NCBI GenBank assembly: GCA_044222065.1
Contig: JBGAOA010000056.1
Coordinates: forward strand, 1-27,501
Direction of reading: 5' to 3'
Length of the DNA stretch: 27,501 nt
Source: Candidatus Eiseniibacteriota bacterium
GTDB lineage: Bacteria > Eisenbacteria > RBG-16-71-46
Position numbers and translations under genes: made by a program. Every line of letters starts with the position of its first letter. The first letter of the stretch is position 1. Of this stretch, positions 1,090 through 26,155 are shown in pieces. Below the pieces are notes generated by a model that was given only the letters and a program-made list of their open reading frames with translations, made no database searches and was not told the origin of the DNA.

Positions 1090-4000
1090 CTAGCGAGAGC
1101 ACTCCGTCACGCGCCATTCGGGGAAGAAGGGCGCGGCGGGACGCGGGGCGCCGGAGCGCGGGCCGGCCGGCTCGACCTGCAGGTCCCGCTCCTCGGGGTC
1201 GCCCGCGATCGGACGGCCGCGCGAGTCGGTGACGACGATCTCGACGCGGCGGTTGCGCGCGTGCGCGTAACGGCTGCGATCGCGCGTGAGCAGCTCCGAT
1301 TCGCCGCGCGCGAGGCGCTGGACGCGCGAGCCCGCGACGCCCTGCGCGTCGAGGTACGACGCCACCGCACACAGGCGGCACTCCGCGAGGCCCTGGTTGT
1401 AGGCGTCGGTGCCGCGCGAGTCGGTGTGGCCCACGAGCTGGATCTTCAGGTTCGGGTAGCGCCGCATCAGGCTCACGAGCTTGTCGAGCAGGACCTGCGC
1501 TTCGGCCGTGAGGTCGCAGTCGTCGAACTTGAAATGCACGTTGCCCGGGCCGAGTTCGCCCGGCGCCGGCAGGTCCTCGGGCGCCTCGGGCGCGACCGGA
1601 GTGACCGGCGCCACCGGCGGGATCGGCGGCACGGCGGGCTTCCGCGCGCACGCGGCTTCCTTCTCGGCGGCGTCGCGCGCGAGACGTTCCGCTTCGAGCG
1701 CGTGCGGTCCGGCCTCGCACTCGCCCTGGTCGGTCTCTTCGTTGCCCGCGTACGCGAGTTCGGTCTCGAGACGCGCGATCTCCTCCGCGGCGCACTCGAA
1801 GCCCGGGTCGCGCTTCAGCGACTCGAGGCGGTTCCACAGGTCCTCGCGCACGCGCGGTGCGCCGGGCATGGGGCGCGCGGACGGCACGGTCTCGCGCGTC
1901 GCCTTCGGCGCGCCGGACTCGAGCGCGAGCACCTGCGCGCGACCGCTGTCGAACGCCGCCGCGGCGAAGCCCGAATCGTCGTCGTCGGTGTACTCGATGC
2001 GCGCGATGTCGAGCCAGCGGCGCGCGGCCGTGACGCGCCACGGGTCGTCGGCGCGCGTGGCCAGCGCATCGAGGCGGCGCTGCCAGGCGTCGAGGTTCGC
2101 GAGGTCGGTGGCGATCGCCTCGTCCGTCACGCGGCGCGCGAGCGGCGTGAGCGGCGCCGCGGTCGCGGGCGCGTTCGCGCGCGCGGCCGACTCGAGCGCC
2201 TCGCGCACCGGGAGCGGACGCGGCGCTGCTCCGGCCGTGCGCTTCGCCCCGAACAGCGTCTCGTCGAACTTGAAGCCGAGGCGCGCGTACGGACCGCGGT
2301 CGGTGCAGTCGCCGAGCGCCAGGTCCTCGTCGCGGAAGCCGAACACGTTGTAGCCGACGCCGAGGCGCAGGTTCTTGAGCAGGATCGCGCCGAGTTCGCC
2401 GCCGAGCCCGGTCTGGGCGACGTCGAAGTGGTCGGAGTAGAGGCCGCGCGCCGTGACGCCGGCGTCGAAGCGGCTCGACAGGTCCACGATCGCGCGCGCG
2501 GCGAACAACTGCGCGTCGGTGCGCGTGATCGCGTCCGACCCGCGGTCCTCGCGCCACTTCGCCGCGGCCTTGCCGCCGAACGTCCAGGCGCGCGCCGGGT
2601 GCCAGTTGAGGTCGGTCGAGAGCACGTGCGCGCTGCGCTTCGTTTCGGGCGACAGCACTTCGTCGCGATCGTAGGCGTGCTCGTAGCGCGCGAGCGCGTC
2701 CCAGCGGTTGCGGTCGGTCTGGCGCCACGCGAGGCCGAGGTGCGAGCGGGCCTGGACGCGCTGCTGGTCGTCCTCGAGGAACACCTGCGACCGGCCGAGC
2801 AGCGTCCAGTCGCGATCGAGCTTGCGCGCGAGACCGCCGCCGAGCAGCCACTGCTCGTTGCCCTCGGACTCGCGGAACTCGACGCGCGCCGTGAGCTTCG
2901 TGCGCGGATCGCGCGTGGCCTCGAAGCCGGTCGTGACGGCGGTCACGGCGGGCGACAGGCCGCCCATCGTGAACACGTGCTCGAGCGACCCGTCCACGCG
3001 CACGCCGCGCGCCGGCTGCCAGCGGTTGCGCAGACCCATCGCGGCCTGCGTCTCGCGGCCCGCGAACGCGTCGCGCGAGCGGTATTCCGTGAAGACGTGA
3101 CCGTCGCGCAGTTCGTCGCTCGCGATGCCGACGAGCGTGGTCTTGCGCTCCTGGGCGCCGTTGAGCGCGAACGGCCCGTCGAACGCGTCGATGTCCTCGT
3201 GCCGCACGTAGAGGCGCGTGCGCGGCGCGACGTGGGCATCGGCGCCGAGCGTCCACGACGTGACGTCGGCGTCGTCGAGGCTGCGCTCGAGTTCGCCGAA
3301 GACGCTCGCCGGGCGCGGGAGTGGCAGGTCGCGCGCGAGTCGCCCGCGCAGCGACGTGAAGTCGTTCGGAGTCGTGCCGGCGCTCGCGGTCGTCGCGGGG
3401 GTCGTCGTCTCCTCGGCGTGACGCACGGCGAGTTCGCCGTTCCAGCCCGCGAAACGGCGCGCGACGCCGCCTTCGAGGCCGTCGCGGCGGCCGCCGCTCG
3501 TGCGGTCCTCGGTGCGCAGGGCGCGCGCGAACAGCGCGGCCGGGCCGAACGCGACGCGCGCGTCGGCGCCGAACTCGTCGCGGCCCGGCAGGAAGCCCGA
3601 CGACGCGTTCTGGAAGCCGCCGTCCACGCGCTGGCCGTACACGCGGCCGAACACGCCGCCGCGCTCGAGGCGCGCGTCGGCGCGCCACGCGTTCGAACGG
3701 TTCGTCCCGCCGAAGCTCGCGCTGCCCGAATCCGCGTACGCCCCCTCGGCGCCGAGCGTCACGCCCGCGAGCGGCTTGAGCGTCGCGTGCGCGCTGCCGA
3801 GCGAGAACGGCGTGAGCGGATCGTCGTCGCGTGCGACCCCGACGCCGAACTGCGCGCGCGGATCGGGCGCGAACGCGAGTTCGCCGCCGTAGACCGCGTG
3901 CGACTCGAGCGTGGACTCGACTTCGTAGATCACGCGGATCGAGACCGGGTTCAGGTCGGAGTCGAGGCTCGGCACCGGCTGGCGGAACACGATCTGGCCG

Positions 4001-11691: not shown

Positions 11692-12011
11692 GGAGAGAGG
11701 TCGAGACGGGGAAGTCGCGCGCGCTCGATCCGACCCCGAGTCGCTGGCACGAGGGATGCCCTTCCCGCGGGATTCTCCGACGTCTTCGGACCGCGAAGCG
11801 AGGCGACCGCCCGTTCCGGACACGGCTCGGCGACCTCGCTCATCGCCACCGCTCGCACGCCCGTCCGCGCCCGAGTTCCCCGCGCGACCGGCCGTCGCGT
11901 GACCGTTTCGACCCCGCGGTGGGCGGCGCCCGGTTCCCAGGGCGATCCGGACTGCCGCGCGGGCCGGGTCCGACTCTCGTCCAGCGAGAGCGAAGCGAGG
12001 AGAACCGAAGC

Positions 12012-13154
12012 ATGTCTCGATACAGGATTGCGTGGCTTCCGGGCGATGGCATCGGCGTCGAGGTGATGGACGCCGCCCGGCTGGTGCTCGATCGCGTCGG
12101 CTTCGACGCCGAATACGTCCACGGCGACATCGGGTGGGAGTTCTGGTGCCGGGAAGGGGACGCGTTCCCGAAGCGCACCGTGGACCTGCTCTGCGGCGTG
12201 AACGCCGCGATGTTCGGCGCGATCACCTCCAAGCCGGTGAAGGAGGCGGAACGCGAGCTCGCGCCCTCACTCCAGGGCAAGGGGCTCGTCTACCGCTCGC
12301 CGATCGTCCGCATGCGCCAGCTGTTCGACCTCTACGTGTGTCTGCGTCCGTGCCGGGCGTTCGAGAACAACCCGATCAACTACAAGGCCGGCATCGACCT
12401 CGTCGTGTTCCGCGAGAACACCGAGGACCTGTACGCCGGCGTCGAGTTCAACCCCGCGCCGGCGAAGCTGCGCGCGACGCTCGGCGAGCTGGCGCCGCCG
12501 TTCAAGGCGTTCGCGAACGTGCCCGACGACGAACTGGCCGTCTCCTGCAAGATCAACACGAAGCGCGGTTCGGAGCGGATCGTCCGCGCCGCGTTCGAGT
12601 TCGCGCGCGCGAACGGCCGCCGGAAGGTCACGGTCGTGCACAAGGCGAACGTCGTGCGTGCGACCGACGGACTGTTCCTCGACGCGGCGCGGCGGATCGG
12701 GAAGGAGTACCCCGAGATCGCGATGGACGACGCGAACATCGACGCGATCACGATGTGGCTGCTCAAGAACCCGCACAGTTACGACGTGCTCGTCGCCCCG
12801 AACCTGTACGGCGACATCATCAGCGACCTGTGCGCGCAGATGGTCGGCGGCCTCGGCTTCGGCTGCTCGGGGAACATCGGCGAGAAGCTCGCCGTGTTCG
12901 AGCCGACGCACGGCTCGGCGCCGAAGTACGCGGGGCAGCGCAAGGTGAACCCGATCGCGACGATCCTCGCGGCGAAGATGATGCTCGAGTGGCTCGGCGA
13001 GAAGGACCGGGCCGCGGCGATCGAGCGCGCGGTCGCGGACGTGATCCGCGAGGGCCGCGTGCGCACCTACGACATGGGCGGCAGCGCCACGACGACCGAA
13101 ATGGCCGAGGCGATCGCCGCGAAGCTCGGCGCGAACGTGCCGGTCGCGCACTGA
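12012..13154 (+). CDS. Isocitrate/isopropylmalate (beta-decarboxylating) dehydrogenase family protein
   Basis: IAWLPGDGIGVEV, DLVVFRENTEDLY, VHKANV, NLYGDIISDL, FEPTHGSAPKYAG, NPIATIL. GAGGAG SD before ATG 12012. Confidence 0.93.
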   Translation: MSRYRIAWLPGDGIGVEVMDAARLVLDRVGFDAEYVHGDIGWEFWCREGDAFPKRTVDLLCGVNAAMFGAITSKPVKEAERELAPSLQGKGLVYRSPIVRMRQLFDLYVCLRPCRAFENNPINYKAGIDLVVFRENTEDLYAGVEFNPAPAKLRATLGELAPPFKAFANVPDDELAVSCKINTKRGSERIVRAAFEFARANGRRKVTVVHKANVVRATDGLFLDAARRIGKEYPEIAMDDANIDAITMWLLKNPHSYDVLVAPNLYGDIISDLCAQMVGGLGFGCSGNIGEKLAVFEPTHGSAPKYAGQRKVNPIATILAAKMMLEWLGEKDRAAAIERAVADVIREGRVRTYDMGGSATTTEMAEAIAAKLGANVPVAH

Positions 13155-13167
13155 GGGGAGGAACGAC

Positions 13168-14100
13168 GTGAAGACTTCGACGGTGCTGAGGAAGGCGATC
13201 TTCGAGCGCCGCGCGGTCGTCGTCGTGGGATGCCACGACGCGTTCAGCGCGCGCGTGATCGAGCAGGCCGGCTTCGAGGCGATCCAGATCTCGGGATTCG
13301 GCCTCGCGGCCTCGCTGCTCGGCAAGCCCGACGTCGGGCTCGTGCAGATGAAGGACGTCCTCGACATGACGTGGAACATCGTCCAGTCCGTGCGCATCCC
13401 CGTGATGGCCGACGTGGACACGGGCGGCGGGAACGCCGTGAACGCCGGGTGGATCACCGAGCGGCTGATCGCGATGGGCGTCGCCGGCATGAACATCGAG
13501 GACCAGGTGTTCCCGAAGCGCTGCGGCCACATGGAGGGCAAGGAGGTCATCCCCGCCGAGGAGATGGCGGGCAAGGTGCGCGCGTGCGCCGAAGCGCGCG
13601 AGCGGCTGGACCCCGAGTTCATCGTCAACGCCCGCACGGACGCGTGCGCGCCGCACGGGCTCGACGAGGCGATCCGGCGCTGCAACCTGTACCTCGAGGC
13701 CGGCGCCGACCTCGCGTTCATCGACGGCATCCGCACGCGCGCCGACATCCAGCGCGCCGTGAAGGAAGTGAGGGGGCCGCTGTCGGTGAACCTCATGGAC
13801 GCCGTGTCGGGCGTGAAGACCGAGCTCGTTCCGATTCCGGAGCTCGCGAAGATGGGCGTCGGGCGCGTCTCGATCCCGGTCGCCTCGATCATGGTCGCGC
13901 ACCGCGCGCTCAAGGACTTCTTCGACGCCCTGAAGGCGTCCCCGACGGGCACGCTCGCCGGCCAGACGAAGTGGATCACGTCGTTCCCGGAGTTCACCGA
14001 GGCGGTCGGACTCGGCGAGTACAAGGCGCTCGAGAACCGCTACCTGCCGAAGGAGCGCATCGAGCAGAAGTACCACGCCCCGCTGAAGGTCGAAGTGTGA
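13168..14100 (+). CDS. Isocitrate lyase/PEP mutase superfamily C-C lyase (methylisocitrate or 2,3-dimethylmalate lyase-like)
   Basis: DAFSAR, GKPDVG, ADVDTGGG, IEDQVFPKRCGH, NARTDA, YLEAGAD. GTG start with GGGAGG SD. Confidence 0.92.
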   Translation: MKTSTVLRKAIFERRAVVVVGCHDAFSARVIEQAGFEAIQISGFGLAASLLGKPDVGLVQMKDVLDMTWNIVQSVRIPVMADVDTGGGNAVNAGWITERLIAMGVAGMNIEDQVFPKRCGHMEGKEVIPAEEMAGKVRACAEARERLDPEFIVNARTDACAPHGLDEAIRRCNLYLEAGADLAFIDGIRTRADIQRAVKEVRGPLSVNLMDAVSGVKTELVPIPELAKMGVGRVSIPVASIMVAHRALKDFFDALKASPTGTLAGQTKWITSFPEFTEAVGLGEYKALENRYLPKERIEQKYHAPLKVEV

Positions 14101-14128
14101 GCCGCGTCGCGAGGGGAGGGGAGTCGTC

Positions 14129-15415
14129 ATGGGCATGACGTACGTTCAGAAGCTGCTCGCGCGCGCCTGCGGACAGTCGCCGGTGCGCGTCGGGGACGTG
14201 CTCGAGCCGCCGGTGGATCTCGCGATGTCGCACGAGAACGCGGCGCTCGTCCTGAATCAGTTCGCCGAGATCTTCGCGGGCACGGGGCGCGAGCCGAAGG
14301 TGTGGGATCCGGACCGGATCGCGATCGTCTTCGACCATCGCGTTCCGGCCGAGTGCGCGAAGACGGCGACGAACCAGAAGAAGGTGCGCGAGTTCGTCGC
14401 GAAGCAGGGCATCCGCAAGTTCCACGACGTCCGCGGCGACGTCGGCGGCATCTGCCACCAGGTGCTGCCCGAGTACGGCTACGTGCGTCCGGGGCAGGTC
14501 GTCGTCGGTACGGACAGCCACACGACGACGCACGGGGCGCTCGGCGCGTTCGCGTTCGGCATCGGCGCGACCGAGATGGCTTCGGTGTGGACGCTCGGCA
14601 AGGCGCTCAACATCGAGGTGCCGGAGACGATCCGCGTGAACCTGAACGGCGCGCTGCCGTCGTGCGTGTTCCCGAAGGACGTCATCCTGCACGTCATCGG
14701 CCTGCTCACGGCCGAGGGCGCGAACTACCGCGTGCTCGAATTCCACGGCGAGGGCATCCGTTCGATGTCCACGTCGGGGCGGCTCGTGCTCTGCAACATG
14801 GCGGTCGAAGCCGGCGCCACCGCCGGCGTCGTCCCGCCCGACGCCGAAACCGCGCGCTACCTGCACGAGGTCGCGGGCGTGCGCGGCGACTTCGAGTTCT
14901 TCGGGCCCGATCCGGACGCCGCCTACGTGCGCACGCTCGACGTGGACGCCGCCGCGCTCGAGCCGCAGGTCGCCTGCCCGCACACGGTGGACAACGTGCG
15001 TTCGGTGCGCGACGTGGTGGGGCGCCCGGTGCAGCAGATCGTGGTCGGGTCGTGCACGAACGGCCGCTACGACGACCTCGCGGTCGCGGCGCGCATCCTC
15101 AAGGGCAAGCGCGTCGCCGACGGCACGCGGCTCCTCGTGTTCCCCGCGTCGTGGAAGGTCTATTCGCAGGCACTGCGTCTCGGCGTGCTGCAGGACCTCG
15201 TGGACGCCGGCGCCGTCGTGTGCAACCCCGGGTGCGGGCCGTGTCTCGGCGTGCATCAGGGCGCGCTCGCGGACGGCGAGACGGCGCTCGCGACCACGAA
15301 CCGGAACTTCAAGGGCCGGATGGGCAATCCGAAGGCGGACGTCTACCTGTGTTCGCCGGCCGTCGCGGCGGCGAGCGCGCTCGCGGGTGCGATCGCCGAT
15401 CCGAGGGGGGTGTGA
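14129..15415 (+). CDS. LeuC/HacA-like dehydratase large subunit (aconitase family)
   Basis: FDHRVP, GICHQ, GTDSHT, CNMAVEAGA. Fe-S ligands in GSCTNGR and CGPCLG. TTNRNFKGRMG and SPAVAAASA also present. Confidence 0.93.
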   Translation: MGMTYVQKLLARACGQSPVRVGDVLEPPVDLAMSHENAALVLNQFAEIFAGTGREPKVWDPDRIAIVFDHRVPAECAKTATNQKKVREFVAKQGIRKFHDVRGDVGGICHQVLPEYGYVRPGQVVVGTDSHTTTHGALGAFAFGIGATEMASVWTLGKALNIEVPETIRVNLNGALPSCVFPKDVILHVIGLLTAEGANYRVLEFHGEGIRSMSTSGRLVLCNMAVEAGATAGVVPPDAETARYLHEVAGVRGDFEFFGPDPDAAYVRTLDVDAAALEPQVACPHTVDNVRSVRDVVGRPVQQIVVGSCTNGRYDDLAVAARILKGKRVADGTRLLVFPASWKVYSQALRLGVLQDLVDAGAVVCNPGCGPCLGVHQGALADGETALATTNRNFKGRMGNPKADVYLCSPAVAAASALAGAIADPRGV

Positions 15416-15417
15416 CG

Positions 15418-15921
15418 ATGCTGCGCGGAAAAGTGGTGCAGGTGCTCGGCGACGACGTGTCCACGGACATCATCTATCCGGGGCGCTACATGGCCACGGT
15501 GCTGCCGACCGAAACGCCGCAGTACGCGTTCGCGGATCACACCGAACTGAATCACGCGCTCGTCGCCGGCGAGGTGCCGGGCGGGAGCGTGATCGTCGCG
15601 GGCGGGAACTTCGGCTGCGGTTCGTCGCGCGAGCAGGCGGCTTCGTGCCTCAAGGGGCACGGGCTCACGATCGTGGCGAAGGGCTTCGCCCGGATCTTCC
15701 TTCAGAACGCGATCAACCTGGGGCTGTCGCTCGTGATCTGCCCGTCGCTCGAAGCGAATCTCGACGACGTGCTCGAAGTCGAGGGCGGCGTGCTGCACAA
15801 CCGCACGACGAACCGTTCGTTCCCGATCGTCGCCCTGCCGAAGGCGAGGCAGGCGATCCTCGATGCGGGTGGTCTCATCGCCTACACGCGGAGGCGGCTC
15901 GTCGAGCAGTCGGCCGTCTGA
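15418..15921 (+). CDS. LeuD/HacB-like dehydratase small subunit
   Basis: C-terminal part of ORF 14302..15921: GDDVSTDIIYPGRY, GGNFGCGSSREQA, FARIFLQNAINLGL, ILDAGGLI. ATG 2 nt after the large-subunit stop. Confidence 0.92.
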   Translation: MLRGKVVQVLGDDVSTDIIYPGRYMATVLPTETPQYAFADHTELNHALVAGEVPGGSVIVAGGNFGCGSSREQAASCLKGHGLTIVAKGFARIFLQNAINLGLSLVICPSLEANLDDVLEVEGGVLHNRTTNRSFPIVALPKARQAILDAGGLIAYTRRRLVEQSAV

Positions 15922-16176: not shown

Positions 16177-18450
16177 ATGCGATCCGGCATCCGCCGTCAG
16201 CCGAGATGGATTCCACTCGTGGTCATCGCGGGGCTGTGCCTGGCCGTGCCCGCCGGCGCCGCGACCCTCACCGGGACGGTCCGCAACGAGGCCGCCGCCG
16301 GCCTCGGGAACGTGGACCTCGACTTCGTCGACCAGTGCTCCGGGGACAACATCTTCCTCTCGGGCGACAAGACCGCCGCGGACGGGACGTTCGCGATCGT
16401 GGTGCCGGCAGGCACCTACGACGTCCGCTTCACGCCGCCGGCCGGCAGCACGGTCGCGGCCTGGGAAATCCAGAACGTCGTCGTGTCGGCCAACGCGAGC
16501 CTCGGTGTGATCACGCTCCATCCCGGGCGGCTCGTTTCGGGAACGGTGCTCACGCCGTCGCTCGGACCGGCGGCCGGCGTCGACCTCAAGTTCGTCGACC
16601 GAGCCACAGATCGCCGCGTCTACCTGACGAAGGATCTGACGAACGCGTCCGGACAGTATTCCGTGCGCGTGCCGCCCGGTGCGTACGACATCGATTTCCG
16701 TCCCGCTTCGACGACCGCGTTCGGCGACCGGGTGCGGCTCGACCTGGTCGTGGGCGCGAGCGATGTCTCGGGGCTCAGCGACGTGCTGCTCGGCGGCTTC
16801 GTCGTGAGCGGCAGCGCTCGCGACAAGAACAACAACAAGCTCAAGAACGTGGACGTCGACGTATTCGACCTGTGCACCGGCGTGCGCATTCCCACGGCGC
16901 ACGACAACACCGACGTGAACGGCAACTACGCCGTCGTCGTCCCGGCCGGGACCTACCTGTTCGAGTTCAATCCTCCGGCGTGCAAGTCGCTCGAAACGAC
17001 GCGGCAGTCCGGCGTCGCGATCTCCAACAACAAGAACCTCGGCACCGAGACGATGAAGGCGGCCTTCGCGGTCAGCGGCGTGGTGCACGACCACGCCGGC
17101 GCCGTGCAGCCCGGAGTGAAGCTCAAGTTCTACGACGCGACCACGCCGGGCAGCCCGCGACAGGGCACGAGCGGCGACCGTACGGACGCCTCGGGCGCGT
17201 TCTCGGTCCTCCTGCCGACGGGCACCTACCACATCGACTTCGAACCGCCGGTCAGCAGCACCGATCAGGTGATGCACCTGTCCTCGGTCGTCGTCGGCGG
17301 AGCCACGAACCTCGGGACGCTCACGCTCGCGCAGGGCGTCCAGGTGAGCGGGCACGTCACCGGTCCGGGCGCGCTTCCGGTGCTCAACGTCAACATCAAT
17401 GCCGTCGACGCCGTGACGCGCGCCCCGGTGCTGCTCGCGCACGACGACACCGACAGCCTCGGCAATTTCACGGTCGTGGTGGCGCCCGGCACGTACGACT
17501 TCCAGTACGATCCGCCCGCCTGCTCGGGCCTCGCACCCGCGTCGCAGGCCGGCCTGAGCATCGCCGCGCCAACGGCGCTGCCCACCGTGAATCTCGTGAC
17601 GGGCGTTCACATCCTCGGCACCGTGCTCGACGCCGGATCGCTTCCGGTCGCGAACGTGGATCTCGACGTCTTCCCGGCCGGCTCGTCGACCAAGCTGTAC
17701 ACGCCGCGGGATCAGACGGCGCTCGACGGGACGTTCGACGTGTTGATCGCGCCCGGCACCTACGACATCAAGTTCGTCCCGTCGTCACTCGCGCCCCACC
17801 TGCGCCCCGCGCTTCGGACGAACCAGCCGATCCCGGTCAACACCACGCTGCCGAACGTCGTGCTCGCGGACGGACTGCTCGTGAGCGGTTTCGTGAAGGC
17901 GGTCGGGACGCTCGCGCCGATCCCGAACGTGTCGGTGGACTTCTTTCCGCCGGGCGGGGGTGCGGCGATGCTCGTCTCGCACCACACGACCTCGGCGCTC
18001 GGCGACTACGCCGTCGCCGTGGAGGCCGGCACCTGGGACATCCTCTACACGCCGCCCGTGGGGTCGGGCTTCCCGTCGGCCTGGCGGCGGGGCGTGACGG
18101 TGAGCGCCGACCTCGCCTTGAGCGACCAGCTGCTCGATCCTTCGCTCATGGCCGTGGATCCCGCGATCGCCTCGTCGTACGTCCAGCTCTCGGCCCCCGT
18201 TCCGAACCCCGCCCGCCACGACGTGCGGTTCACGGTGTCCACCGCGGACGGTGAGGCCGAACTGACGGTGTGGGACCTTGCCGGCCGCCGCGTCGCCACG
18301 CCGTGGAAGGGGCGTGCGAACTCGTCCGTGACGATCCACTGGAACGGAACGACCGAACGAGGCGAGCCCGTGCCCGCCGGCCTCTACTTCGTCCGACTCG
18401 AGGGCGCAGCGGGCACGAGGAAGGTCCGCTCCGTTCTGTTCCTCCACTGA
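16177..18450 (+). CDS. Secreted protein with 7 carboxypeptidase-regulatory-like beta-sandwich repeats and a C-terminal FlgD-Ig/T9SS-like sorting domain
   Basis: Signal peptide ...LAVPAGA. Repeats VSGTV...NVDLD...TDxxGxYxVxVPxGTYDIxFxPP. C-terminus PVPNP...LTVWDLAGRRV...WNGTTERGEPVPAGLYFVRL. AGGAGG SD. Confidence 0.88.
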   Translation: MRSGIRRQPRWIPLVVIAGLCLAVPAGAATLTGTVRNEAAAGLGNVDLDFVDQCSGDNIFLSGDKTAADGTFAIVVPAGTYDVRFTPPAGSTVAAWEIQNVVVSANASLGVITLHPGRLVSGTVLTPSLGPAAGVDLKFVDRATDRRVYLTKDLTNASGQYSVRVPPGAYDIDFRPASTTAFGDRVRLDLVVGASDVSGLSDVLLGGFVVSGSARDKNNNKLKNVDVDVFDLCTGVRIPTAHDNTDVNGNYAVVVPAGTYLFEFNPPACKSLETTRQSGVAISNNKNLGTETMKAAFAVSGVVHDHAGAVQPGVKLKFYDATTPGSPRQGTSGDRTDASGAFSVLLPTGTYHIDFEPPVSSTDQVMHLSSVVVGGATNLGTLTLAQGVQVSGHVTGPGALPVLNVNINAVDAVTRAPVLLAHDDTDSLGNFTVVVAPGTYDFQYDPPACSGLAPASQAGLSIAAPTALPTVNLVTGVHILGTVLDAGSLPVANVDLDVFPAGSSTKLYTPRDQTALDGTFDVLIAPGTYDIKFVPSSLAPHLRPALRTNQPIPVNTTLPNVVLADGLLVSGFVKAVGTLAPIPNVSVDFFPPGGGAAMLVSHHTTSALGDYAVAVEAGTWDILYTPPVGSGFPSAWRRGVTVSADLALSDQLLDPSLMAVDPAIASSYVQLSAPVPNPARHDVRFTVSTADGEAELTVWDLAGRRVATPWKGRANSSVTIHWNGTTERGEPVPAGLYFVRLEGAAGTRKVRSVLFLH

Positions 18451-18483
18451 CGTCCATCCCATCACTCCGAGGTGAGTCGCACG

Positions 18484-19659
18484 ATGCGTAGATCCGGATC
18501 GAATTCGTCCCCGCGCGTGGCCTGCACCTGCCTGCTCGCGCTCCTGCTGGCCCTCCCGGCGCTCGCGAGCGCGCAGCCGAAGGCATCCTCCACCGCGCCG
18601 CCGCGGTCGGCGCCGCTCCCGCTCACGTTCGTGCTCGGGCTCGAGTGGTTCGACGACGACAACATCCTGCAGCTCACGCCGAGCGACCTCGCGCGGTTCG
18701 CGAGCAATCCGGCGCCTCCGCGATTCCTCATCGAGTCGACGGACGACAACGTGCTCGCGCTGCACGGCGACGCCTACGCGCACTTCGAGCTCGCGCCCCG
18801 GCGCGACACGCGATTCGGGGCGTCGTTCGACGCGAGCGACTATCAGCGCAACGACGTCAAGGACTGGCACGAGTTCGGACTGTCCTTCGCGCAGGAGCTG
18901 ACGGCCTCGCGCCGCAACCTGACCGCGCTCAGCGCGTGGTGGAGCCGGGTGCCCGATTTCTACCTGCTCCAGATCACCGACGCCGACGATTCGTTCGCGG
19001 CGGGCACGCGCATCCGGCGCTCGCTGAGCTACGAGCAGTCCACGGCGGGCGTCCGCGTGGATCAGGAGCTGATGCGCGGACGCGCGAAGCTCGCGCTCGG
19101 CTACGAGCGCGTGACGCGCGACTACAACGAATCCTTCAACGAGCGCGACAACCACAACGACCAGTGGAAGCTCACCGGCGAAGTCCGGCCCTTCCCGAAC
19201 TGGGGCGCGAGCGCGCGGATCACGTACCTCGTGGGCAGGCTGCGGGCCGAGGGCGACCTGCCGTCGAGCCCGATCGTGGACGCGGACGTGTCCTACGACC
19301 ACCAGGGGATCGGCGCCGCCGTGTCGCTGCCCTGGGGGCGCGGGCGGACCCGCGGGCGACTCGAAGCGAGCCTGATGCCCGAGGTCCGGGACTTCCAGAC
19401 GTCCGACAAGTTCGACGTGCGGCGCTTCGGCCGCGAAAACCACCGGCTCGAGACCGTCGTGCGGGTGATCCAGCGCGTGTGGGGACCCTTCGAGGCGATC
19501 GCGACGTACGACAAGCTGAGCAGCGACGCGTCGTTCGACTCGGGCCTCGTGTTCCCCGAGGACCAGACGGATTTCGACCAGACGCGCCTGGGTCTGATGC
19601 TGCGCGGGCGCTGGGACCTGCGCGATTCGCGATCGACGGCGCGGGACGCCCGCCCGTGA
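18484..19659 (+). CDS. Outer-membrane beta-barrel protein (possibly BBP2-like)
   Basis: Signal peptide ...ALPALASA/Q; LGLEWFDDDNIL start motif; alternating aromatic/hydrophobic strands; last strand LGLMLRGRW. GAGGT SD before ATG 18484 (track start GTG 18472). Confidence 0.7.
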   Translation: MRRSGSNSSPRVACTCLLALLLALPALASAQPKASSTAPPRSAPLPLTFVLGLEWFDDDNILQLTPSDLARFASNPAPPRFLIESTDDNVLALHGDAYAHFELAPRRDTRFGASFDASDYQRNDVKDWHEFGLSFAQELTASRRNLTALSAWWSRVPDFYLLQITDADDSFAAGTRIRRSLSYEQSTAGVRVDQELMRGRAKLALGYERVTRDYNESFNERDNHNDQWKLTGEVRPFPNWGASARITYLVGRLRAEGDLPSSPIVDADVSYDHQGIGAAVSLPWGRGRTRGRLEASLMPEVRDFQTSDKFDVRRFGRENHRLETVVRVIQRVWGPFEAIATYDKLSSDASFDSGLVFPEDQTDFDQTRLGLMLRGRWDLRDSRSTARDARP

Positions 19660-22600
19660 CGTTCGTCACGAACGCGTCGCCCGGACCGGAGCTGTCGCGA
19701 AGGTCGCTGGCCACTCCCGAGCCGCTCGTGCGCGCGTTCGCGCGCCGCGTGCAGCAGGAGGGTGCGCTCGATCTCACGCAGGGCGACTACAAGAACTCCG
19801 ATTTCGCGCCGCATCCGGAAGTCGTCCGCGCCGCGCAGCGCATCACGCGCAACAGCGTGCACAGCTACGGAGCGGCCGTGGGGCGCATGGACGTGCGTGC
19901 CGAGGTGGCGGTGTTCTTCAATCGGGACGGCCAGCGCGATTACCCCGAGTCCGAGATCGAATTCCTGCCGGACGAAGTCGTCTTCACGCCGGGGACGCGC
20001 GCCGGTCTCGCGATGGTGCTGGAGGTGCTCGGTGCCGACGGCAGCGGAGTCGTCGTGCCGCGGCCGTCGTGGGAGTACGACTGGTTCGTCCAGCGCGCGG
20101 GGAAGCGGCTCGTCGAATTGCCGACGAAGGCTCCCGCGTTCCTTCCGGATCCCGCGGAACTGGCGTCGCTGCTCGACGGCGGCGGCATCTCGAGCGTCAT
20201 CCTCAACAATCCGCACAATCCGACCGGGCGCGTCTACCCGCGCGCCCTCGTCGAGGAACTCGTTCGAGTCTGCGTCGAGCATCGCGTGTTCGTGTTCTAC
20301 GACTGCGTGTACCAGCGCCTCGACTACGTGGACGCGTTCGTCCATCCCGCGTTCGCGAACCCGGAATGGCGCGACTGGGTCGTCACGTTTTCCGGCCTCT
20401 CCAAGATGGACATGTTCGGCGCCTCGACCGGCGCCCGCGCCTGCTGGCTCGTGATGAGCGACCGGATTCGAGCGGGCGGCGTGCGCGCGCGCGAGGTCAT
20501 CGCCAACCTCTCGGCGTGGCTCGTGGCGAATCCGTCCACGCTCGCCCAGGACTGGGCGCTCGCCGCACTCCAGTCGCCGCTCGCCGGACTCCGCCGCCCG
20601 TCGCCCTACATGCGCGAGCGCCGCGACTTCATGGCCCGGGCGGCCGACTCGCTCGCGAGCCTCGGCGTGGAGCGGACCGGATTCGAGGGCACGTTCTACG
20701 CGCCGCTCGCGTTCCCGGGCCTCGTCGGCGCGACGTTCGACCGCGCGCGCAACGGCGTGCACGAACGGGCGGTCGTGCGCGGCAGCGAGGACGCCTTCGA
20801 GTTCCTGCTCACGGCCGGCGTCGGCGGCATTCCGTTCACGGCGTTCGGCGGTTCGCACGGACGCCGGTACGGCACCTGGCAACGGCTGTCGTACGGTTCG
20901 AAGGACGTGAAGGAACTCGCCGTCTTCATGGCCCGCGTCCGCGAGCGCATGGAACGTCAGGGACGCGCCGGGGCCAGCGCGCCGCTCGCGATCGCGGAGG
21001 GCGCGGATCCGGTGTGGGCATCGGTCTGCACGCGCGAGGGCTACTCCGCGCTCGACGACCTCGATCGCGAGGCGTTCTCGAACGCGCGGCTCGAGTGGCG
21101 CGCGCGGGTGCCGTCCGAGTCGCTGCGCCTCACGGGCACGAAGCATCCCGATTCGACCGCGCATCGGGTCGAGCAGCTGCGGCGCGCGGAACTCGCCGCG
21201 GGCGAAGGACCGGACGGCGCCCGGCGGACGCTGGATCACCTCGAGTGGAATCCGCTCATCGAGGCGCGGCAGGAGTTCGAAGAGAACCTCGCGGACCTGC
21301 TCGGCAGCTGCAACGAGGTCCTGCTCGATTTCGAGGGCCGCAACATCAGCCCCGAATGGCTCGCGCTGCCCGAGAAGGTCGTGATGGCCCTGCTGCGGCG
21401 CGGCGTCGTGCCCGGCGACGAGCGCCGGCTGCTGTTCCGGGTGCCGAACCCGTGGCTCGAGCCGGACGAGGAGAAGATCGAGAAGCTGCTCGCGATGGTC
21501 GCGCGCACGAACGTGCTGTTCCTGCTCGCCGCCGAGAAGCTCGGGATCGCGCCGCTGCGGAACGCGATCCACGAACTCGCGGTGCCGCAGATCAACTCGC
21601 GCACCGACGTCGGAGCGCTGCACAAGATCGGCACGCTCTACCTGCAGGCGCTGCGCGGGCTGTTCGACGGCGAGCGCGCCGACCGCTTCCTGTCCCGGCG
21701 CGTCACGGCGGCGCGGCGGGGGGCGTTCGTCGCGAAGGTCGCCCGCGTGCGGCTCGTTCCGCTGGTCGAGAACGTCGGAGCGCTCTCGCACCTGCCCGAA
21801 CTGCTCGAGGCGTTCTACGTCGCGCTCGAGCACCACCGCGGTCTCGCGGATGCGCCCTCCACCGAGGGCTTCGTCGTCGACTTCGACGGTGGAGAATCCG
21901 AGGTGCGCGTGTTCGTCGCGATGTCCGACACCGCCGAACAGAGCGGGAAGATCGCGACGGATGCCGCATTCACGCTCGCGGTCGCGAGCCGTGCGGACAG
22001 CGAACGCAGGCTCGCCGAGCGCGCGGGCGCGATCGGAGCGCCGGCCCCGGCCGTGACGTTCCTCGTGGGCGCGGGGCGCGCGGGTTTCCGCGGAGGCCTC
22101 GATCCCGCCCACGACGGCGTGATCGCGCAATTCAGCCGCGCGGGCGGCGTGACGCTGCAGGGCGTTCGCGCGGACGCCCCGCACGAAGCCGAGGAGATCG
22201 CGCGCCGCTTCCGCGCCGCCGTGGCGGACGGACCGCCCGCGCTGTCGCTGCCGGCGCCGGATCGCGAGGGGCTCGCGGGGCTGCTCGAGCGGGGAACGCG
22301 CGAGCACACGCGGACGCTGCTCCGCATCGCGCCGCTGATCGCGCCGTTCGGCGGACTCGTGCCGCAGACGCGCGTGCGCGTCCGGGCCGCGGGCTCCTCG
22401 AGCTACGGGCGCTCCATTCCCGAGTACCCGGCCGAGTGGAACGAGGGCGGAGGATTGCCCGACAACCGCGACCTGAGGGACGCGTGGCCCGAGGGCGTGA
22501 CGCTGCCGCGCGCGATCGTCTACAACCTCGGATGCACGACGCTCGGCCTGCCCGCGGTCACGTCGGATCTCGCCGCCCTCGACAAGCGCGGCGCCGTCCT

Positions 22601-23204
22601 GCTCGATCGCGTCGCGCCCGGGTACCGCGAGATCCTCGCCTCCGAACTGCCGTTCTTCGTGAAGGAGGCGGCGGCGCTCGTGTTCGGGCGGCCGTTCGCG
22701 GAAGCGACGGAACAGCTCGTGCGACGCGCCGCCGCGGCGCTGTGGGTGGACGTGAAGCCGCGCGAGGACCTCGTCCTCCCGACGTGCCTGTTCGCCATGA
22801 TGTACCTGCGCTACCTCGCCGAGGACTCCGACAGCTGGGACGAAACGAAGGAGCACGAGAGCCTGGCGACGCGCGAGAGCGAGCTGATCCGAGAGACGTC
22901 CAGCGGCGCGTTCCTCGCGCTGTGCGCCGAAAAGCCCGGCCACCGCTGGGGCGTGCTGCAGTCGCTGCTCGAGGCGGAGGACGCGACGCGGCTCCTGCTC
23001 GCGCGCGAGCTGACGATCGAGGAGAAGCGCGAGTTCGTCGATCTGGCGATCGACGGCTGGCTGCGCACGGTTTCGGAGGAGTCGGCGCGTGCGCTGCGCC
23101 GGGAGTGGTCGCACCTTCGCGAGCTCGACAAGGCCGTGCTCACGCATCGGGCGATCCGACAGATGATCGAGAACGAAGAACGGCGCGGCAGTCGCGGGGC
23201 ATGA
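19656..23204 (+). CDS. Fusion: class I/II PLP aminotransferase + archaeal-type phosphoenolpyruvate carboxylase (PpcA)-like domain, 1182 aa
   Basis: GTG overlaps the upstream stop (GTGA). N-half: ILNNPHNPTG, YDCVY, SGLSK (PLP Lys250), QRLSY. C-half: TKHPD, DFEGR, FRVPNP, IHELAVP, VPLVE, VRVFVAMSD, GAGRAGFRGG, TLQ, YGR, LPRAI, in the order of PpcA motifs. Confidence 0.85.
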   Translation: MTFVTNASPGPELSRRSLATPEPLVRAFARRVQQEGALDLTQGDYKNSDFAPHPEVVRAAQRITRNSVHSYGAAVGRMDVRAEVAVFFNRDGQRDYPESEIEFLPDEVVFTPGTRAGLAMVLEVLGADGSGVVVPRPSWEYDWFVQRAGKRLVELPTKAPAFLPDPAELASLLDGGGISSVILNNPHNPTGRVYPRALVEELVRVCVEHRVFVFYDCVYQRLDYVDAFVHPAFANPEWRDWVVTFSGLSKMDMFGASTGARACWLVMSDRIRAGGVRAREVIANLSAWLVANPSTLAQDWALAALQSPLAGLRRPSPYMRERRDFMARAADSLASLGVERTGFEGTFYAPLAFPGLVGATFDRARNGVHERAVVRGSEDAFEFLLTAGVGGIPFTAFGGSHGRRYGTWQRLSYGSKDVKELAVFMARVRERMERQGRAGASAPLAIAEGADPVWASVCTREGYSALDDLDREAFSNARLEWRARVPSESLRLTGTKHPDSTAHRVEQLRRAELAAGEGPDGARRTLDHLEWNPLIEARQEFEENLADLLGSCNEVLLDFEGRNISPEWLALPEKVVMALLRRGVVPGDERRLLFRVPNPWLEPDEEKIEKLLAMVARTNVLFLLAAEKLGIAPLRNAIHELAVPQINSRTDVGALHKIGTLYLQALRGLFDGERADRFLSRRVTAARRGAFVAKVARVRLVPLVENVGALSHLPELLEAFYVALEHHRGLADAPSTEGFVVDFDGGESEVRVFVAMSDTAEQSGKIATDAAFTLAVASRADSERRLAERAGAIGAPAPAVTFLVGAGRAGFRGGLDPAHDGVIAQFSRAGGVTLQGVRADAPHEAEEIARRFRAAVADGPPALSLPAPDREGLAGLLERGTREHTRTLLRIAPLIAPFGGLVPQTRVRVRAAGSSSYGRSIPEYPAEWNEGGGLPDNRDLRDAWPEGVTLPRAIVYNLGCTTLGLPAVTSDLAALDKRGAVLLDRVAPGYREILASELPFFVKEAAALVFGRPFAEATEQLVRRAAAALWVDVKPREDLVLPTCLFAMMYLRYLAEDSDSWDETKEHESLATRESELIRETSSGAFLALCAEKPGHRWGVLQSLLEAEDATRLLLARELTIEEKREFVDLAIDGWLRTVSEESARALRREWSHLRELDKAVLTHRAIRQMIENEERRGSRGA

Positions 23205-23288
23205 CCCGCACCGCGAGCGCCTCGAGTCCGCCGAGCCCAGGTCGCTCCCGGCACACCGGGGGCGCGAACGAGAGAGAGGAGAACCGTC

Positions 23289-24341
23289 ATGCCGATCGGT
23301 CCGAATGAGAAGATCAAGTGGTCGTTCGTCACCCACATCGTTCCCGTGGAATCGATCGTGTCGTGGGAGAGGCGTTCCGACGCTCCCCGCATCGGTGACG
23401 TCGCGCTCCACCGCGTGATCACGCTCGGCAAACACACGCGCATGGACAACCGCGATCGCCGCACGCACTACCTGCTCCCGGGGGATCTCGTGGCGACCGC
23501 GTACGGCAACCGGTACGCGACGGATCAGTACGAAGGCTTCGTGCCGCCAGCGAGCGACCTGTATCACATGCTCTCGATCGGCGGAGTGTGCGGCATGGTC
23601 GCGACGCGGAACGCCTCGATGCCGGACCCCACGGTGCTCGAGTTCATCGGCTACGCGATCGACGCGAAGGGGCGCATCGTCAACCTGCGCTCGCATCGCC
23701 TCCGCCCCGTCGGCGCCAAGGGGAAGCCCCGGAAGTTCAAGACGATCCTCTCGATCGGCGCCTCGATGAACTCGGGCAAGACGACCTCGGCGTGCATGAG
23801 CATTCGCGGGCTTTCGAAGGCCGGATACCGCGTCGCCGCCGCGAAGCTGACGGGAACCGGTGCGATCAAGGACCTGCAGTTCATGCGCGACGCCGGGGCC
23901 GAGGAGGTCCTCGACTTCACCGACTACGGCTGCCCGTCCACGTCGCGCACGTCGTTGCGCAAGCTGCTGCGACTCGTTCGCACGATCGAGTCGCACCTCG
24001 GAAAGCTCGAGCCCGACTACGTCGTCTACGAAGTCGCCGACGGCATCTTCCAGCGCGAGACGGCGATGCTGCTCGCGAATCCCGACTTCCACTCGCGGAT
24101 CGACTTCACGCTGTTCTCCGCACCCGATGCGCTCGCGGCCGAGAGCGGCCAGCGCGCACTCCGGCGGCTCGGCTACGACCTCGTCGCCATCTCGGGGATC
24201 GTGTCGGCGAGCGAACTCGGCAAGCAGGAGGTCTTCAAGGCCACGACGCTGCCGTGCCTGTCGAGTACGGAGCTGTCCGAGGGCGGAATCCTCAAGCTCG
24301 TCGGCGCCGAAGCGCGGTCCGAGCAGCGCCGGGCGGGATAG
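23289..24341 (+). CDS. DUF1611-like P-loop protein
   Basis: GDLVATAYGNRYATDQYEG; Walker A-like GASMNSGKTT; AAKLTGTG, MRDAGA, LDFTDYGCPST, EVADGIFQRETA. GAGGAG SD. Confidence 0.75.
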   Translation: MPIGPNEKIKWSFVTHIVPVESIVSWERRSDAPRIGDVALHRVITLGKHTRMDNRDRRTHYLLPGDLVATAYGNRYATDQYEGFVPPASDLYHMLSIGGVCGMVATRNASMPDPTVLEFIGYAIDAKGRIVNLRSHRLRPVGAKGKPRKFKTILSIGASMNSGKTTSACMSIRGLSKAGYRVAAAKLTGTGAIKDLQFMRDAGAEEVLDFTDYGCPSTSRTSLRKLLRLVRTIESHLGKLEPDYVVYEVADGIFQRETAMLLANPDFHSRIDFTLFSAPDALAAESGQRALRRLGYDLVAISGIVSASELGKQEVFKATTLPCLSSTELSEGGILKLVGAEARSEQRRAG

Positions 24342-24349
24342 GGGCGGAC

Positions 24350-26155
24350 ATGCGCGGCGTCCACGAACTTCGAACGCTCAGGCCCTACATCCGGCCGCAC
24401 GTCGTGCTCATCGGCGTCGCGGTGATCGTGTCGCTGGTGCTCGCGGTCGTGGACGTCCCGCTGCCGTTCTTCATCCGCCACATCATCGACGACGTCGTCC
24501 GGACCCGTCCGAAGCGCTACCTGTTCGGATTCAACCTGGGCGGCATCGACCCGGTGAAGCTGCTGAACCTGATCTTCGCCCTGCTCGTGGCGAACGCCGC
24601 GCTCAAGGGGCTGCTCGTCTACCTGCAGCGCGTGCTCACCGAGCGCGTCGGCCAGCAGGTCGTGTACGAGATGCGCCGCGACCTCTACAGCCACCTGCAG
24701 GGCCTCAACCTGATCTACTTCCGCGATTCGTCGACCGGACAGGTCATGCTGCGCTTCATTGGCGACATCCAGGCCGTGCTCGATCTGGTCACCGACGGGA
24801 TCATGCGCGTCCTGATGGACGCCACGACGATCCTCGTCGTGCTCGTGTGCCTGTTCGTGACGAACCTCCACATGACGTGGGTCGCGCTCGCCTTCGTTCC
24901 GCTCTACGTCTGGCCGTTCGTGCGATGGAACTCGCGCATCCGGGAAGCGAGCCACGACACCCGGAACGCCCGCTCGCACCTGTCGGGGAACCTGCAGGAG
25001 AAGCTCGCGGGGATCGGCATCGTGAAGGCGTTCGGGCAGGAGGAGCGCGAGCAGCGTCACTTCGAGGGCCTGTCGTCGGAGGTGCGCGATCACGCGGTCC
25101 AGCGCGCCGTGTGGTCCGGGAAGCTCAACGGCGCCGCGCAAGCCTCGATCGCGCTGTGCGCGGCGTTCGTGCTCTATCAGGGCGCGCTCTACACGATGAA
25201 GCCCGGCATGACTCGCGGACAGCTCATGGCGTTCTACGTGCTCGTGTCGCTGCTGTTCGCCCCGCTGCGCCGGATCGCGCGGGTGAGCGAGACGGTCCAG
25301 AACGCCATCGTTTCGCTCGAGCGCATCAACGAGTTCCTGCGCTCGACGGGGAAGCACCAGGAGCGTCCCGGATCCCGCGCACTGCAGGTGAATCGCGCGG
25401 AGGTCGAGTTCGAGAACGTGACGTTCTGCTATCCCGAGGGGCATCCGGTGCTCGAGAACCTGTCGTTCCGGATTCCCGGCGGACAGGTCGTGGCGCTCGT
25501 GGGCCACAACGGCGCGGGCAAGTCGACGCTCGTGAGCCTGCTGCCGCGCTTCTTCGAAGTGGACGGGGGCCGCGTGCTCGTGGACGGCCAGGACCTGCGC
25601 GACGTGAGCCTGACGTCGCTGCGCGACCGGATCGGCATCGTGTCGCAGGACACGATGCTGTTCTCGGGCTCGATCCGCGAGAACATCGCCTACGGCCGGC
25701 CCGACGCGAGCGAGGAGCAGATCCTCGAGGCGGCGCGGGTGGCGAACGCCCTGGACTTCATCCTCGAGCACAAGAAGGGGCTCGACCGGAAGGTCGGCGA
25801 GCGGGGCGGGAAGCTCTCGGGCGGGCAGCGCCAGCGCATCGCCATCGCGCGCGCCGTCCTTCGCGACCCGGCGATCCTGATCCTCGACGAGGCGACTTCG
25901 AACGTCGACTCGGAATCCGAAGCCCTGATCCGCGACGCGCTCAACCGCCTGATGGAGGGGCGGACGACGTTCGTCGTCGCGCACCGCATCTCGACCGTGC
26001 AGCGCGCGGACCAGATCCTCGTGCTCGAAGCGGGACGGATCGTCGAGAGCGGCACGCACGCGGAACTGATGCGCAGGGACGGCCACTACAGCCGCCTCTG
26101 CTCCGAGCAGCTGATCGCGGACACCGCGGTCCCGCCGCAGGCCGCCGCGAGCTGA
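24350..26155 (+). CDS. MsbA-like ABC exporter (fused permease and ATPase), 601 aa
   Basis: N-terminal transmembrane helices; Walker A GHNGAGKST; signature LSGGQRQR; Walker B ILILDEATS; H-loop VAHRIST. ATG 8 nt after the upstream stop. Confidence 0.94.
   Translation: MRGVHELRTLRPYIRPHVVLIGVAVIVSLVLAVVDVPLPFFIRHIIDDVVRTRPKRYLFGFNLGGIDPVKLLNLIFALLVANAALKGLLVYLQRVLTERVGQQVVYEMRRDLYSHLQGLNLIYFRDSSTGQVMLRFIGDIQAVLDLVTDGIMRVLMDATTILVVLVCLFVTNLHMTWVALAFVPLYVWPFVRWNSRIREASHDTRNARSHLSGNLQEKLAGIGIVKAFGQEEREQRHFEGLSSEVRDHAVQRAVWSGKLNGAAQASIALCAAFVLYQGALYTMKPGMTRGQLMAFYVLVSLLFAPLRRIARVSETVQNAIVSLERINEFLRSTGKHQERPGSRALQVNRAEVEFENVTFCYPEGHPVLENLSFRIPGGQVVALVGHNGAGKSTLVSLLPRFFEVDGGRVLVDGQDLRDVSLTSLRDRIGIVSQDTMLFSGSIRENIAYGRPDASEEQILEAARVANALDFILEHKKGLDRKVGERGGKLSGGQRQRIAIARAVLRDPAILILDEATSNVDSESEALIRDALNRLMEGRTTFVVAHRISTVQRADQILVLEAGRIVESGTHAELMRRDGHYSRLCSEQLIADTAVPPQAAAS

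Follow-up and report, generated by a model that had tools for sequence, protein, structure and literature searches.

The window analysed here is a stretch of 27,501 nucleotides (contig JBGAOA010000056.1, positions 1 to 27,501, forward strand; assembly GCA_044222065.1) from a Candidatus Eiseniibacteriota bacterium whose genome is 94% complete. It contains a gene in which the coding sequence of a pyridoxal phosphate (PLP) dependent aminotransferase continues, in the same frame, into that of an archaeal-type phosphoenolpyruvate (PEP) carboxylase (PEPC). This arrangement was proposed in a first-pass annotation of the sequence, and is confirmed by our analyses. The gene and its parts, all on the plus strand, are as follows.

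19656..23204, +: fusion gene, 1182 codons plus TGA stop, GTG start
19656..20960, +: class I (subgroup Ib-like) PLP aminotransferase domain, residues 1-435
19998..20000, +: codon of Arg115 (TPGTRAGL), which aligns with Lys109 of Thermus thermophilus aspartate aminotransferase and Lys169 of Arabidopsis prephenate aminotransferase
20403..20405, +: codon of Lys250 (SGLSK), the PLP Schiff-base lysine as predicted by alignment
20961..21125, +: inter-domain segment, residues 436-490
21126..23201, +: divergent 'long' archaeal-type PEPC domain, residues 491-1182, from the TKHPD histidine motif to the C-terminal RGSRGA
21144..21146, +: codon of His497 (TKHPD), by alignment the equivalent of the canonical TQHPD histidine

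The frame of the fusion gene is open from stop to stop between 18645 and 23204. Within 19656-23204 the GC content at codon positions 1, 2 and 3 is 0.74, 0.50 and 0.91, as in every other gene of the window, whereas the same frame 5' of the GTG (18645-19655) has values of 0.94, 0.67 and 0.48, and is an out-of-frame shadow of the upstream gene (18472-19659, plus strand), which encodes a 395-residue protein with a signal-peptide-like N-terminus and has a coding-type GC of 0.93 at its own third positions. This split in codon-position GC indicates that coding begins at GTG 19656, a start codon that shares four nucleotides (GTGA) with the TGA stop of the upstream gene. Both of the families named in the first-pass annotation were recovered from this single frame by a Pfam scan, well above their gathering cut-offs: Aminotran_1_2 (PF00155) over residues 38-335, with 101.9 bits against 19.7, and PEPcase_2 (PF14010) over residues 532-1020, with 107.1 bits against 25 and covering profile positions 21-445 of 493. 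A 1599-residue open reading frame (ORF) on the minus strand (19293-24092) matched no family in the Pfam scan and has a GC pattern of antisense type.

Two separate genes wrongly joined during assembly or gene calling could give the appearance of a fusion, and we retrieved 80 loci from the genomes of other species, 72 of which cover essentially the whole protein, the other 8 being cut by contig ends. Frame changes occur at 7 of these 72 loci, and databases hold both aminotransferase-only (approximately 470-500 residues) and carboxylase-only (approximately 730 residues) calls, as would be expected if the genes were separate. However, the remaining 65 loci, which come from independent assemblies, are uninterrupted in one frame, and the short forms either carry Arg/Ser-rich out-of-frame tails after about residue 445 or begin at internal starts at residues 453-461, as expected from indel errors in a variable linker. 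Indeed, the frame changes concentrate in the variable, GC-rich part of the linker (around residues 440-460), and consequently the two halves are often annotated as separate 'partial' proteins. Moreover, the junction of the window gene itself (near 20950-21130) is bridged by one contig of 1724 nt, obtained from an independent activated-sludge run, which spans 19462-21185 with 4 differences, and 15 sequencing runs contain at least half of the words sampled from the junction region. We regard the artefact explanation as refuted, its remaining probability being negligible. The frame-changing loci and split calls are L008, L050, L058, L062, L066, L068 and L071, with proteins P0234, P0248, P0239, P0256 and P0066. 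The idea that the short forms are natural split versions, of the kind that would make the fusion a 'Rosetta stone', was rejected, given that they look like frameshift products, and a protein in which an outer-membrane barrel takes the place of the aminotransferase (P0046) is in all likelihood a chimera, its only source being one 5.4-kb contig. Contigs from two metatranscriptome libraries match both halves of the gene (19486-19796, 20049-20236, 21055-21355 and 21496-21673) with 0-4 differences (99-100%), yet these libraries contain a small share of the stretch (0.08-0.17 of sampled words), and DNA carry-over is possible, such that they offer a weak hint of expression.

Among uncultured bacteria of soil and sludge the fusion is common. 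When the carboxylase half served as query in a word-indexed search, 421 proteins were returned, and among the best 120 of these 108 carry both Pfam domains (1031-1242 residues, the C-terminal half having 65-100% identity to the query). When one genome was scanned for each species, at least 130 genomes were found to encode the fusion, and the best 80 of the 130 are all metagenome-assembled genomes (MAGs). Holders are labelled as Acidobacteriota (Thermoanaerobaculia, Vicinamibacteria), Gammaproteobacteria (Steroidobacteraceae, Nevskiaceae, Lysobacterales), Chloroflexota, Myxococcales, Eisenbacteria and Riflebacteria. Furthermore, the ESM Atlas includes a 98-member cluster with both domains, and an automatic name, 'aminotransferase/phosphoenolpyruvate carboxylase', is already in use at the Joint Genome Institute (JGI) for hundreds of metagenome proteins. 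The first-pass annotation had supposed that no fusion of this kind was described. This stands insofar as our full-text literature search, from which subscription-only papers were absent, found no paper on an aminotransferase-PEPC fusion, and a paper on PEPC gene-family transfer (PMC3521007) contains no mention of 'aminotransferase' or 'fusion', but the implied rarity does not stand. As far as we have found, the architecture is widespread yet seemingly uncharacterised in the literature.

The carboxylase half forms a tight and separate branch, as is evident from a search of 1.84 billion representatives clustered at 50% identity, in which it matched one full-length cluster (P0124, 1196 residues, 63% identity) together with fragments, followed by a gap, then three long non-fused proteins (27-34%), and then canonical PpcA at E values of 1e-8 to 1e-4. 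The three long proteins, P0164 (930 residues), P0166 (905 residues) and P0218 (1037 residues, from a Micrarchaeota MAG), are PEPcase_2 proteins that share the TKHPD-like motif, EGR and PQIN with the fusion, but their N-terminal extensions of 230-350 residues match no Pfam family and include no aminotransferase, and they are singletons in the protein collection. They may mark the source lineage of the fused carboxylase. In an unrooted FastTree phylogeny of 66 sequences, to which the submitters' own taxon labels were applied, divergence between phyla is shallow, a Pseudomonadota clade is nested in Acidobacteriota, and the window protein groups with two Myxococcales sequences and one from Eisenbacteria, a pattern that fits gene transfer between phyla.

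The first-pass annotation had described the N-terminal half as a complete aminotransferase with Lys250 as its PLP lysine, and this description holds. The NCBIfam models PRK07337 and PRK06108 align over residues 47-433, from which it follows that the fold is present in full, and the closest relatives of known structure are subgroup Ib aspartate and prephenate aminotransferases (E values of about 1e-22 to 1e-21). We located the key sites by alignment to 1BJW (the Thermus thermophilus enzyme) and 5WMH, and assessed conservation first in 23 full-length homologues and then in the 99 fused homologues contained in a larger alignment. In all 99 fusions G43, Y71, R115, W139, N185, N188, D216, Y219, S247, S249, K250, R261 and R410 are invariant, a set in which K250, D216, N188, Y219, R261 and R410 represent the sites that in this family provide the PLP lysine, the aspartate at the pyridine nitrogen, the asparagine and tyrosine at O3' and the arginine for the alpha-carboxylate. 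The PLP lysine, D-x-x-Y, NPTG and the alpha-carboxylate arginine are features shared with 1BJW and 5WMH, although the fusion half is only about 22-25% identical to these proteins, is joined to a carboxylase, and has short insertions, e.g. GDYKNxDF, and MDMFGAST after the catalytic lysine. The guanitoxin cyclodehydratase GntC, a top match in our scans, was discarded as unspecific, as the same model is matched, with 217-329 bits, by five of six further aminotransferase-fold genes scanned in this genome.

A further difference from subgroup Ib enzymes, also noted in the first-pass annotation and upheld by the alignments, is that Arg115 (TPGTRAGL) occupies the position of a characteristic lysine, opposite the lysine in 'tvggkqal' of 1BJW and opposite K169 in prephenate aminotransferase from Arabidopsis, which is substituted in 5WMK. 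The arginine is found in 99 of 99 fusions, and positive charge at the position is retained. The lysine at this site presumably binds the distal carboxylate of the substrate; our literature search for a role of Lys109/Lys169 brought up unrelated papers only. Taken with the identity of the nearest solved relatives, Arg115 favours dicarboxylate substrates.

The inter-domain segment is variable in its first part (mean pairwise identity over the whole segment 52.7%), and contains a conserved VW.S.CT..GY.A.D motif, which in the structural model described below packs, with helices from about residue 452, against the carboxylase. In the carboxylase half itself, an alignment of seven fusions with 14 canonical archaeal-type PEPCs (493-545 residues, with PF14010 scores of 355-481 bits) revealed 39 positions that are invariant throughout, from the N-terminal T(Q/K)HPD to the C-terminal RG..G, among which are H497, R595, E705, D758, R812, R906, R908, R952, R1177 and G1181, ten sites that are also invariant in 99 of 99 fusions. 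The distribution of these positions, from the histidine motif to the C-terminus, implies that the carboxylase spans approximately residues 491-1182, i.e. that it extends beyond the Pfam envelope. All six PpcA motifs listed in the first-pass annotation, namely H497 (TKHPD), R595, E705 (PLVE), D758 (SD), R812 (FRGG) and R952 (PRAI), are present and invariant, and its premise that PpcA is canonically a stand-alone protein (approximately 500-540 residues) is sound. Its claim that the C-terminal half is collinear with PpcA is right as to domain and residues, but this is no ordinary PpcA, as it forms a long and divergent branch, with insertions relative to the canonical form (e.g. around residues 1040-1160), an identity of 20-28% to canonical archaeal-type PEPCs, and a score of 106.1 bits on TIGR02751, below the equivalog cut-off of 146.05.

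Such divergence raises the alternative that the C-terminal half is not a carboxylase, but a diverged PEP-utilising enzyme that attacks another electrophile or performs another reaction, with the aminotransferase acting on the resulting product. Consistent with this idea are the low TIGR02751 score and sequence identity, the score of 107 bits on PF14010 where canonical PpcA proteins reach 325-481, and a number of subfamily-specific changes directly beside catalytic motifs (TKHPD for TQHPD, EGR for EGK and PQ(I/V)N for PM). Nevertheless, every position that is invariant among the sampled canonical proteins is kept, including the C-terminal R..G, and the predicted fold is that of a known archaeal-type PEPC. 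Consequently, we consider a non-carboxylase function very improbable.

The fold was assessed using a full-length AlphaFold2 model built from 120 aligned sequences, with a mean predicted local distance difference test (pLDDT) score of 84 and a predicted template modelling (TM) score of 0.77, in which the carboxylase and the conserved end of the linker are mostly above 90 pLDDT. In a Foldseek search seven chains of 3ODM, the archaeal-type PEPC of Clostridium perfringens, rank first (E values of 3.4e-20 to 2.1e-18, TM scores of 0.75-0.78 normalised on the target), the best match having E 3.4e-20 and TM 0.77, and the model shows the carboxylase half to have the 3ODM fold, in line with the structural comparison that the first-pass annotation had foreseen. 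In sequence searches 3ODM is likewise the only significant solved relative of the C-terminal half (E 1.6e-9). The next Foldseek matches are subgroup Ib aspartate and prephenate aminotransferases, at TM scores of 0.42-0.48 and root-mean-square deviations of 13-15 A, a poor superposition that results from the weakness of the N-terminal part of the model, and which adds nothing beyond the sequence matches. Mean pairwise identity among the fusions is 84.6% for the aminotransferase half and 75.9% for the carboxylase half. Judged from the aligned residues, both domains are shown to be intact, with their catalytic residues all kept, and to be under strong purifying selection.

On this basis we consider it probable that the fusion is a bifunctional enzyme that converts PEP, bicarbonate and glutamate to aspartate, 2-oxoglutarate and phosphate. 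The C-terminal PEPC would convert PEP and bicarbonate irreversibly to oxaloacetate and phosphate, and the N-terminal aminotransferase would then transfer an amino group to oxaloacetate, with glutamate as the most likely donor, yielding aspartate and 2-oxoglutarate. The net effect would be that of a committed aspartate synthase, which couples anaplerotic CO2 fixation to amino-group transfer. Both activities, the direction of the second, its donor and its product, and a kinetic gain from the proximity of the two sites, are what we infer from the conserved residues and relatives of each half. With aminotransferase domains forming dimers and the carboxylase a tetramer, as in their relatives, the protein should form a tetramer-based assembly. 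True channelling of oxaloacetate within it is doubtful, and is the least certain step of the scheme. Also unlikely, if taken in its entirety, is the fullest version of this proposal, a self-contained aspartate synthase in which oxaloacetate would pass from the carboxylase tetramer to the aminotransferase dimers, held on the same particle, bypassing the cytosolic pool, with competitive feedback by aspartate at the PEP site, and which would have spread by gene transfer through abundant uncultured bacteria of soil and sludge and add to their dark CO2 fixation.

Several results weigh against an aspartate-forming enzyme. In the NCBIfam scan of the N-terminal half every named equivalog (aspartate, alanine and tyrosine aminotransferases, etc.) was missed, the best score being 105 bits against cut-offs of 292-648, and the best matches were to alanine, aspartate, tyrosine and methionine aminotransferase models (60-105 bits). 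The C-terminal half falls short of the TIGR02751 cut-off, as described above, and confidence in the model is low over the aminotransferase, where pLDDT drops below 50 at residues 23-78, 249-261, 292-313 and 392-413. Pathway context is lacking, as seven of the ten neighbours in the window match none of the 80 loci. The host genome contains 16 further PF00155 matches, one of them aspartate-aminotransferase-like, and given such genes the fused aminotransferase is not needed for aspartate as such. Most relatives in the host's order have neither the fusion nor a classical PEPC, and of 50 holders that belong to other phyla, 26 contain a classical PEPC over its cut-off, and several have two. PLP-binding residues can, moreover, persist in aminotransferase-fold sensors, e.g. 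GabR/MocR. Finally, a passage in a 2020 review describes aspartate as an inhibitor that competes with PEP at an archaeal-type PEPC (PMC8100219), and the product of the N-terminal half could thus inhibit the C-terminal half.

In one alternative, the aminotransferase fold would serve mainly as a sensor that binds an amino acid (aspartate, glutamate or another) through PLP and tunes the fused PEPC, with net transamination physiologically unimportant. The presence of classical PEPC in 26 of 50 holders would fit a differently regulated isoenzyme, and a new regulatory module would be sensible given that the allosteric sites of bacterial and plant PEPCs are absent from canonical archaeal-type enzymes (as stated in the same review section, PMC8100219). 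A precedent exists among malic enzymes, which likewise act at the PEP-pyruvate-oxaloacetate node and many of which are fused to a second enzyme-like domain, in this case a phosphotransacetylase-like (PTA-like) domain that is reported there to be inactive, yet required for allosteric control by acetyl-CoA, glutamate and aspartate (PMC8100219). However, this is the only precedent that we have seen, and where the extra domain of malic enzyme is reported to be silent and regulatory, the aminotransferase of the fusion keeps all of its catalytic residues: the full transamination set (the lysine, the aspartate at the pyridine nitrogen, both carboxylate arginine positions, the tyrosine and the asparagine) is invariant in 99 of 99 fusions, which goes beyond the needs of PLP binding, and the domain exceeds the catalytic carboxylase half in conservation. 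We consider a mainly sensory role rather unlikely.

Alternatively, both halves could be active with the aminotransferase running in reverse, converting aspartate and 2-oxoglutarate to oxaloacetate and glutamate, such that both halves would supply the tricarboxylic acid (TCA) cycle with oxaloacetate and an inhibitor of the carboxylase would be removed, or aminating a different 2-oxo acid. Transamination is freely reversible, and holders look like protein-degrading heterotrophs, with secreted proteins sorted by the type IX secretion system (T9SS) encoded in the window. The competitive inhibition by aspartate reported in the review passage cited above (PMC8100219) would give its removal some value, and the failure to reach any named aminotransferase equivalog, with best matches scattered over four substrate types, leaves room for another amino acid pair. 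On the other hand, fusing an irreversible producer of oxaloacetate to a second producer of oxaloacetate offers no obvious gain, and Arg115 and the nearest solved relatives indicate dicarboxylate substrates, such that we view a reversed or differently paired aminotransferase as quite unlikely. Catalysis in the N-terminal half, and with it the aspartate-forming reading, is favoured because all residues needed for transamination are invariant, because this half is the more conserved of the two, and because its solved relatives use dicarboxylates.

With regard to the metabolic setting of such an enzyme, the fusion is the only PEPcase_2 protein in the host genome, where neither a classical PEPC nor the carboxyltransferase domain of pyruvate carboxylase was found, in keeping with the proposed reaction. 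An ATP-dependent PEP carboxykinase (PEPCK) was likewise not found, and a GTP-dependent PEPCK is present. Among 101 sampled genomes of the host's order, 6 encode the fusion and 3 a classical PEPC (2 of them over the cut-off), while the pyruvate carboxylase domain was found in none. A distribution complementary to classical PEPC or pyruvate carboxylase was looked for but not found. Instead, the patchy occurrence within the order and coexistence with classical PEPC in 26 of the 50 holders from other phyla suggest an accessory, horizontally mobile enzyme, and no plain replacement of PEPC.

In the same passage of the 2020 review, four types of PEPC are distinguished, none of which is fused, and archaeal-type PEPCs are described as stand-alone homotetramers with subunits of 55-60 kDa (PMC8100219). 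The fusion shares with archaeal-type PEPC (PpcA; PF14010, TIGR02751; 3ODM) the fold and the 39 invariant positions, including the histidine motif, two metal-binding acids, FRGG, PRAI and R..G, but its carboxylase domain of about 690 residues, against about 500-540, lies within a protein of 1182 residues, has one extra residue after the terminal glycine, and is joined to an aminotransferase. If functional as proposed, it would add a fifth structural type to the four of the review. Among aminotransferases, the relevant passage of a review names a single fused example, BIO3-BIO1 of plants and fungi, in which dethiobiotin synthetase is joined to diaminopelargonic acid (DAPA) aminotransferase (PMC9309667); the word 'fusion' does not occur in that review. 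It is similar in that an aminotransferase is fused to the enzyme of a neighbouring step, although the aminotransferase class, the partner and the pathway all differ.

A functional parallel lies in plants, where PEPC and aspartate aminotransferase catalyse the first two steps of aspartate-forming C4 photosynthesis. There the same two reactions are carried out by separate proteins, with a plant-type PEPC, within a CO2-concentrating cycle, whereas the fusion is one polypeptide in heterotrophic bacteria; were the self-contained synthase real, it would be a natural one-polypeptide version of the PEPC-aspartate aminotransferase entry module of aspartate-type C4 metabolism. Cells contain little oxaloacetate, which is moreover unstable, and its hand-over between enzymes has long been debated in the context of substrate channelling, for which a natural covalent pair of PEPC and aminotransferase would be a clean test case. 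Furthermore, Acidobacteriota, Steroidobacteraceae, Chloroflexota and further uncultured groups that dominate soils and activated sludge may, through the fusion, possess a committed route that leads from PEP and CO2 to the aspartate family, and the route would be relevant to estimates of heterotrophic (dark) CO2 fixation. It may also provide a ready-made part for engineering the production of aspartate-derived chemicals. Meanwhile automatic names such as 'phosphoenolpyruvate carboxylase' or 'aspartate aminotransferase' each conceal half of the protein.

The remainder of the window, aside from the upstream gene described above, contains the following features.

1090-10866, -: giant protein of 3258 residues, with 13 DUF11 repeats, CARDB/Ig-like matches and a terminal OmpA peptidoglycan-binding domain
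11919-13154, +: homoisocitrate/isopropylmalate-dehydrogenase-like gene, from family matches
13168-14100, +: gene of the isocitrate-lyase/PEP-mutase superfamily with a KRCGH loop, best match methylisocitrate lyase
14129-15415, +: homoaconitase-type large subunit, from family matches
about 15412-15921, +: homoaconitase-type small subunit, from family matches
16177-18450, +: T9SS-sorted protein of 757 residues, with four CarboxypepD_reg repeats; with its sorting tail of type A (TIGR04183) it fits an origin in the FCB group/Eisenbacteria
23289-24341, +: protein of 350 residues with faint P-loop matches (CbiA/MobB), below cut-off
about 24340-26155, +: MsbA-like ABC exporter, directly after the 350-residue protein

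We find no sign that these genes form a conserved unit with the fusion. Apart from the seven neighbours that matched nothing, the isopropylmalate-dehydrogenase-like gene has matches at 3 of the 80 loci (35-38% identity), the ABC transporter at 7 and the DUF11 protein at 1, and in an all-against-all clustering of flanking ORFs the largest cluster spans 11 of the 80 loci, with some clusters consisting of spurious high-GC frames. Conserved operon partners were accordingly rejected. The product of the translationally coupled upstream gene matched no family in Pfam and NCBIfam scans, and weak homologues of it (29-30% identity) occur in 2 of 5 related holder genomes, on contigs other than that of the fusion. 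The lack of conserved neighbours, together with this lack of linkage of the upstream gene in related holders, suggests that the fusion gene is a free-standing unit.

The four-gene run at 11919-15921 on the plus strand is unusual in that a carbon-carbon lyase lies amid a set of genes for 2-oxoacid chain elongation. None of its genes reaches an NCBIfam equivalog cut-off, while the large and small subunits pass the cut-offs of subfamily models. The Pfam PEP_mutase match of the gene at 13168-14100, beside aconitase-like and isopropylmalate-dehydrogenase-like genes, had suggested a phosphonate cluster, with a pathway to which the PEPC-like domain could contribute, an idea that we reject: the best NCBIfam match of this gene is methylisocitrate lyase with 221 bits, against 108 for PEP mutase, and it has the NIEDQ..KRCGH loop, which we take to mark lyases of the isocitrate lyase group and not true PEP mutases. 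Moreover, four of the five genes of the supposed cluster match none of the 80 other loci, and the isopropylmalate-dehydrogenase-like gene matches 3.

Synteny of a lineage-specific kind is seen around the fusion in other holders, where a KdsD/GutQ-like SIS-CBS gene and a KdsC-like phosphatase gene lie upstream at 5 loci, and a cysteine-synthase-like PALP gene lies approximately 1.5 kb downstream of the fusion at 6 loci. These loci belong to Thermoanaerobaculia (e.g. L012, L017) and Gammaproteobacteria (e.g. L042), the gene names being taken from reading of the sequences, without a family scan.

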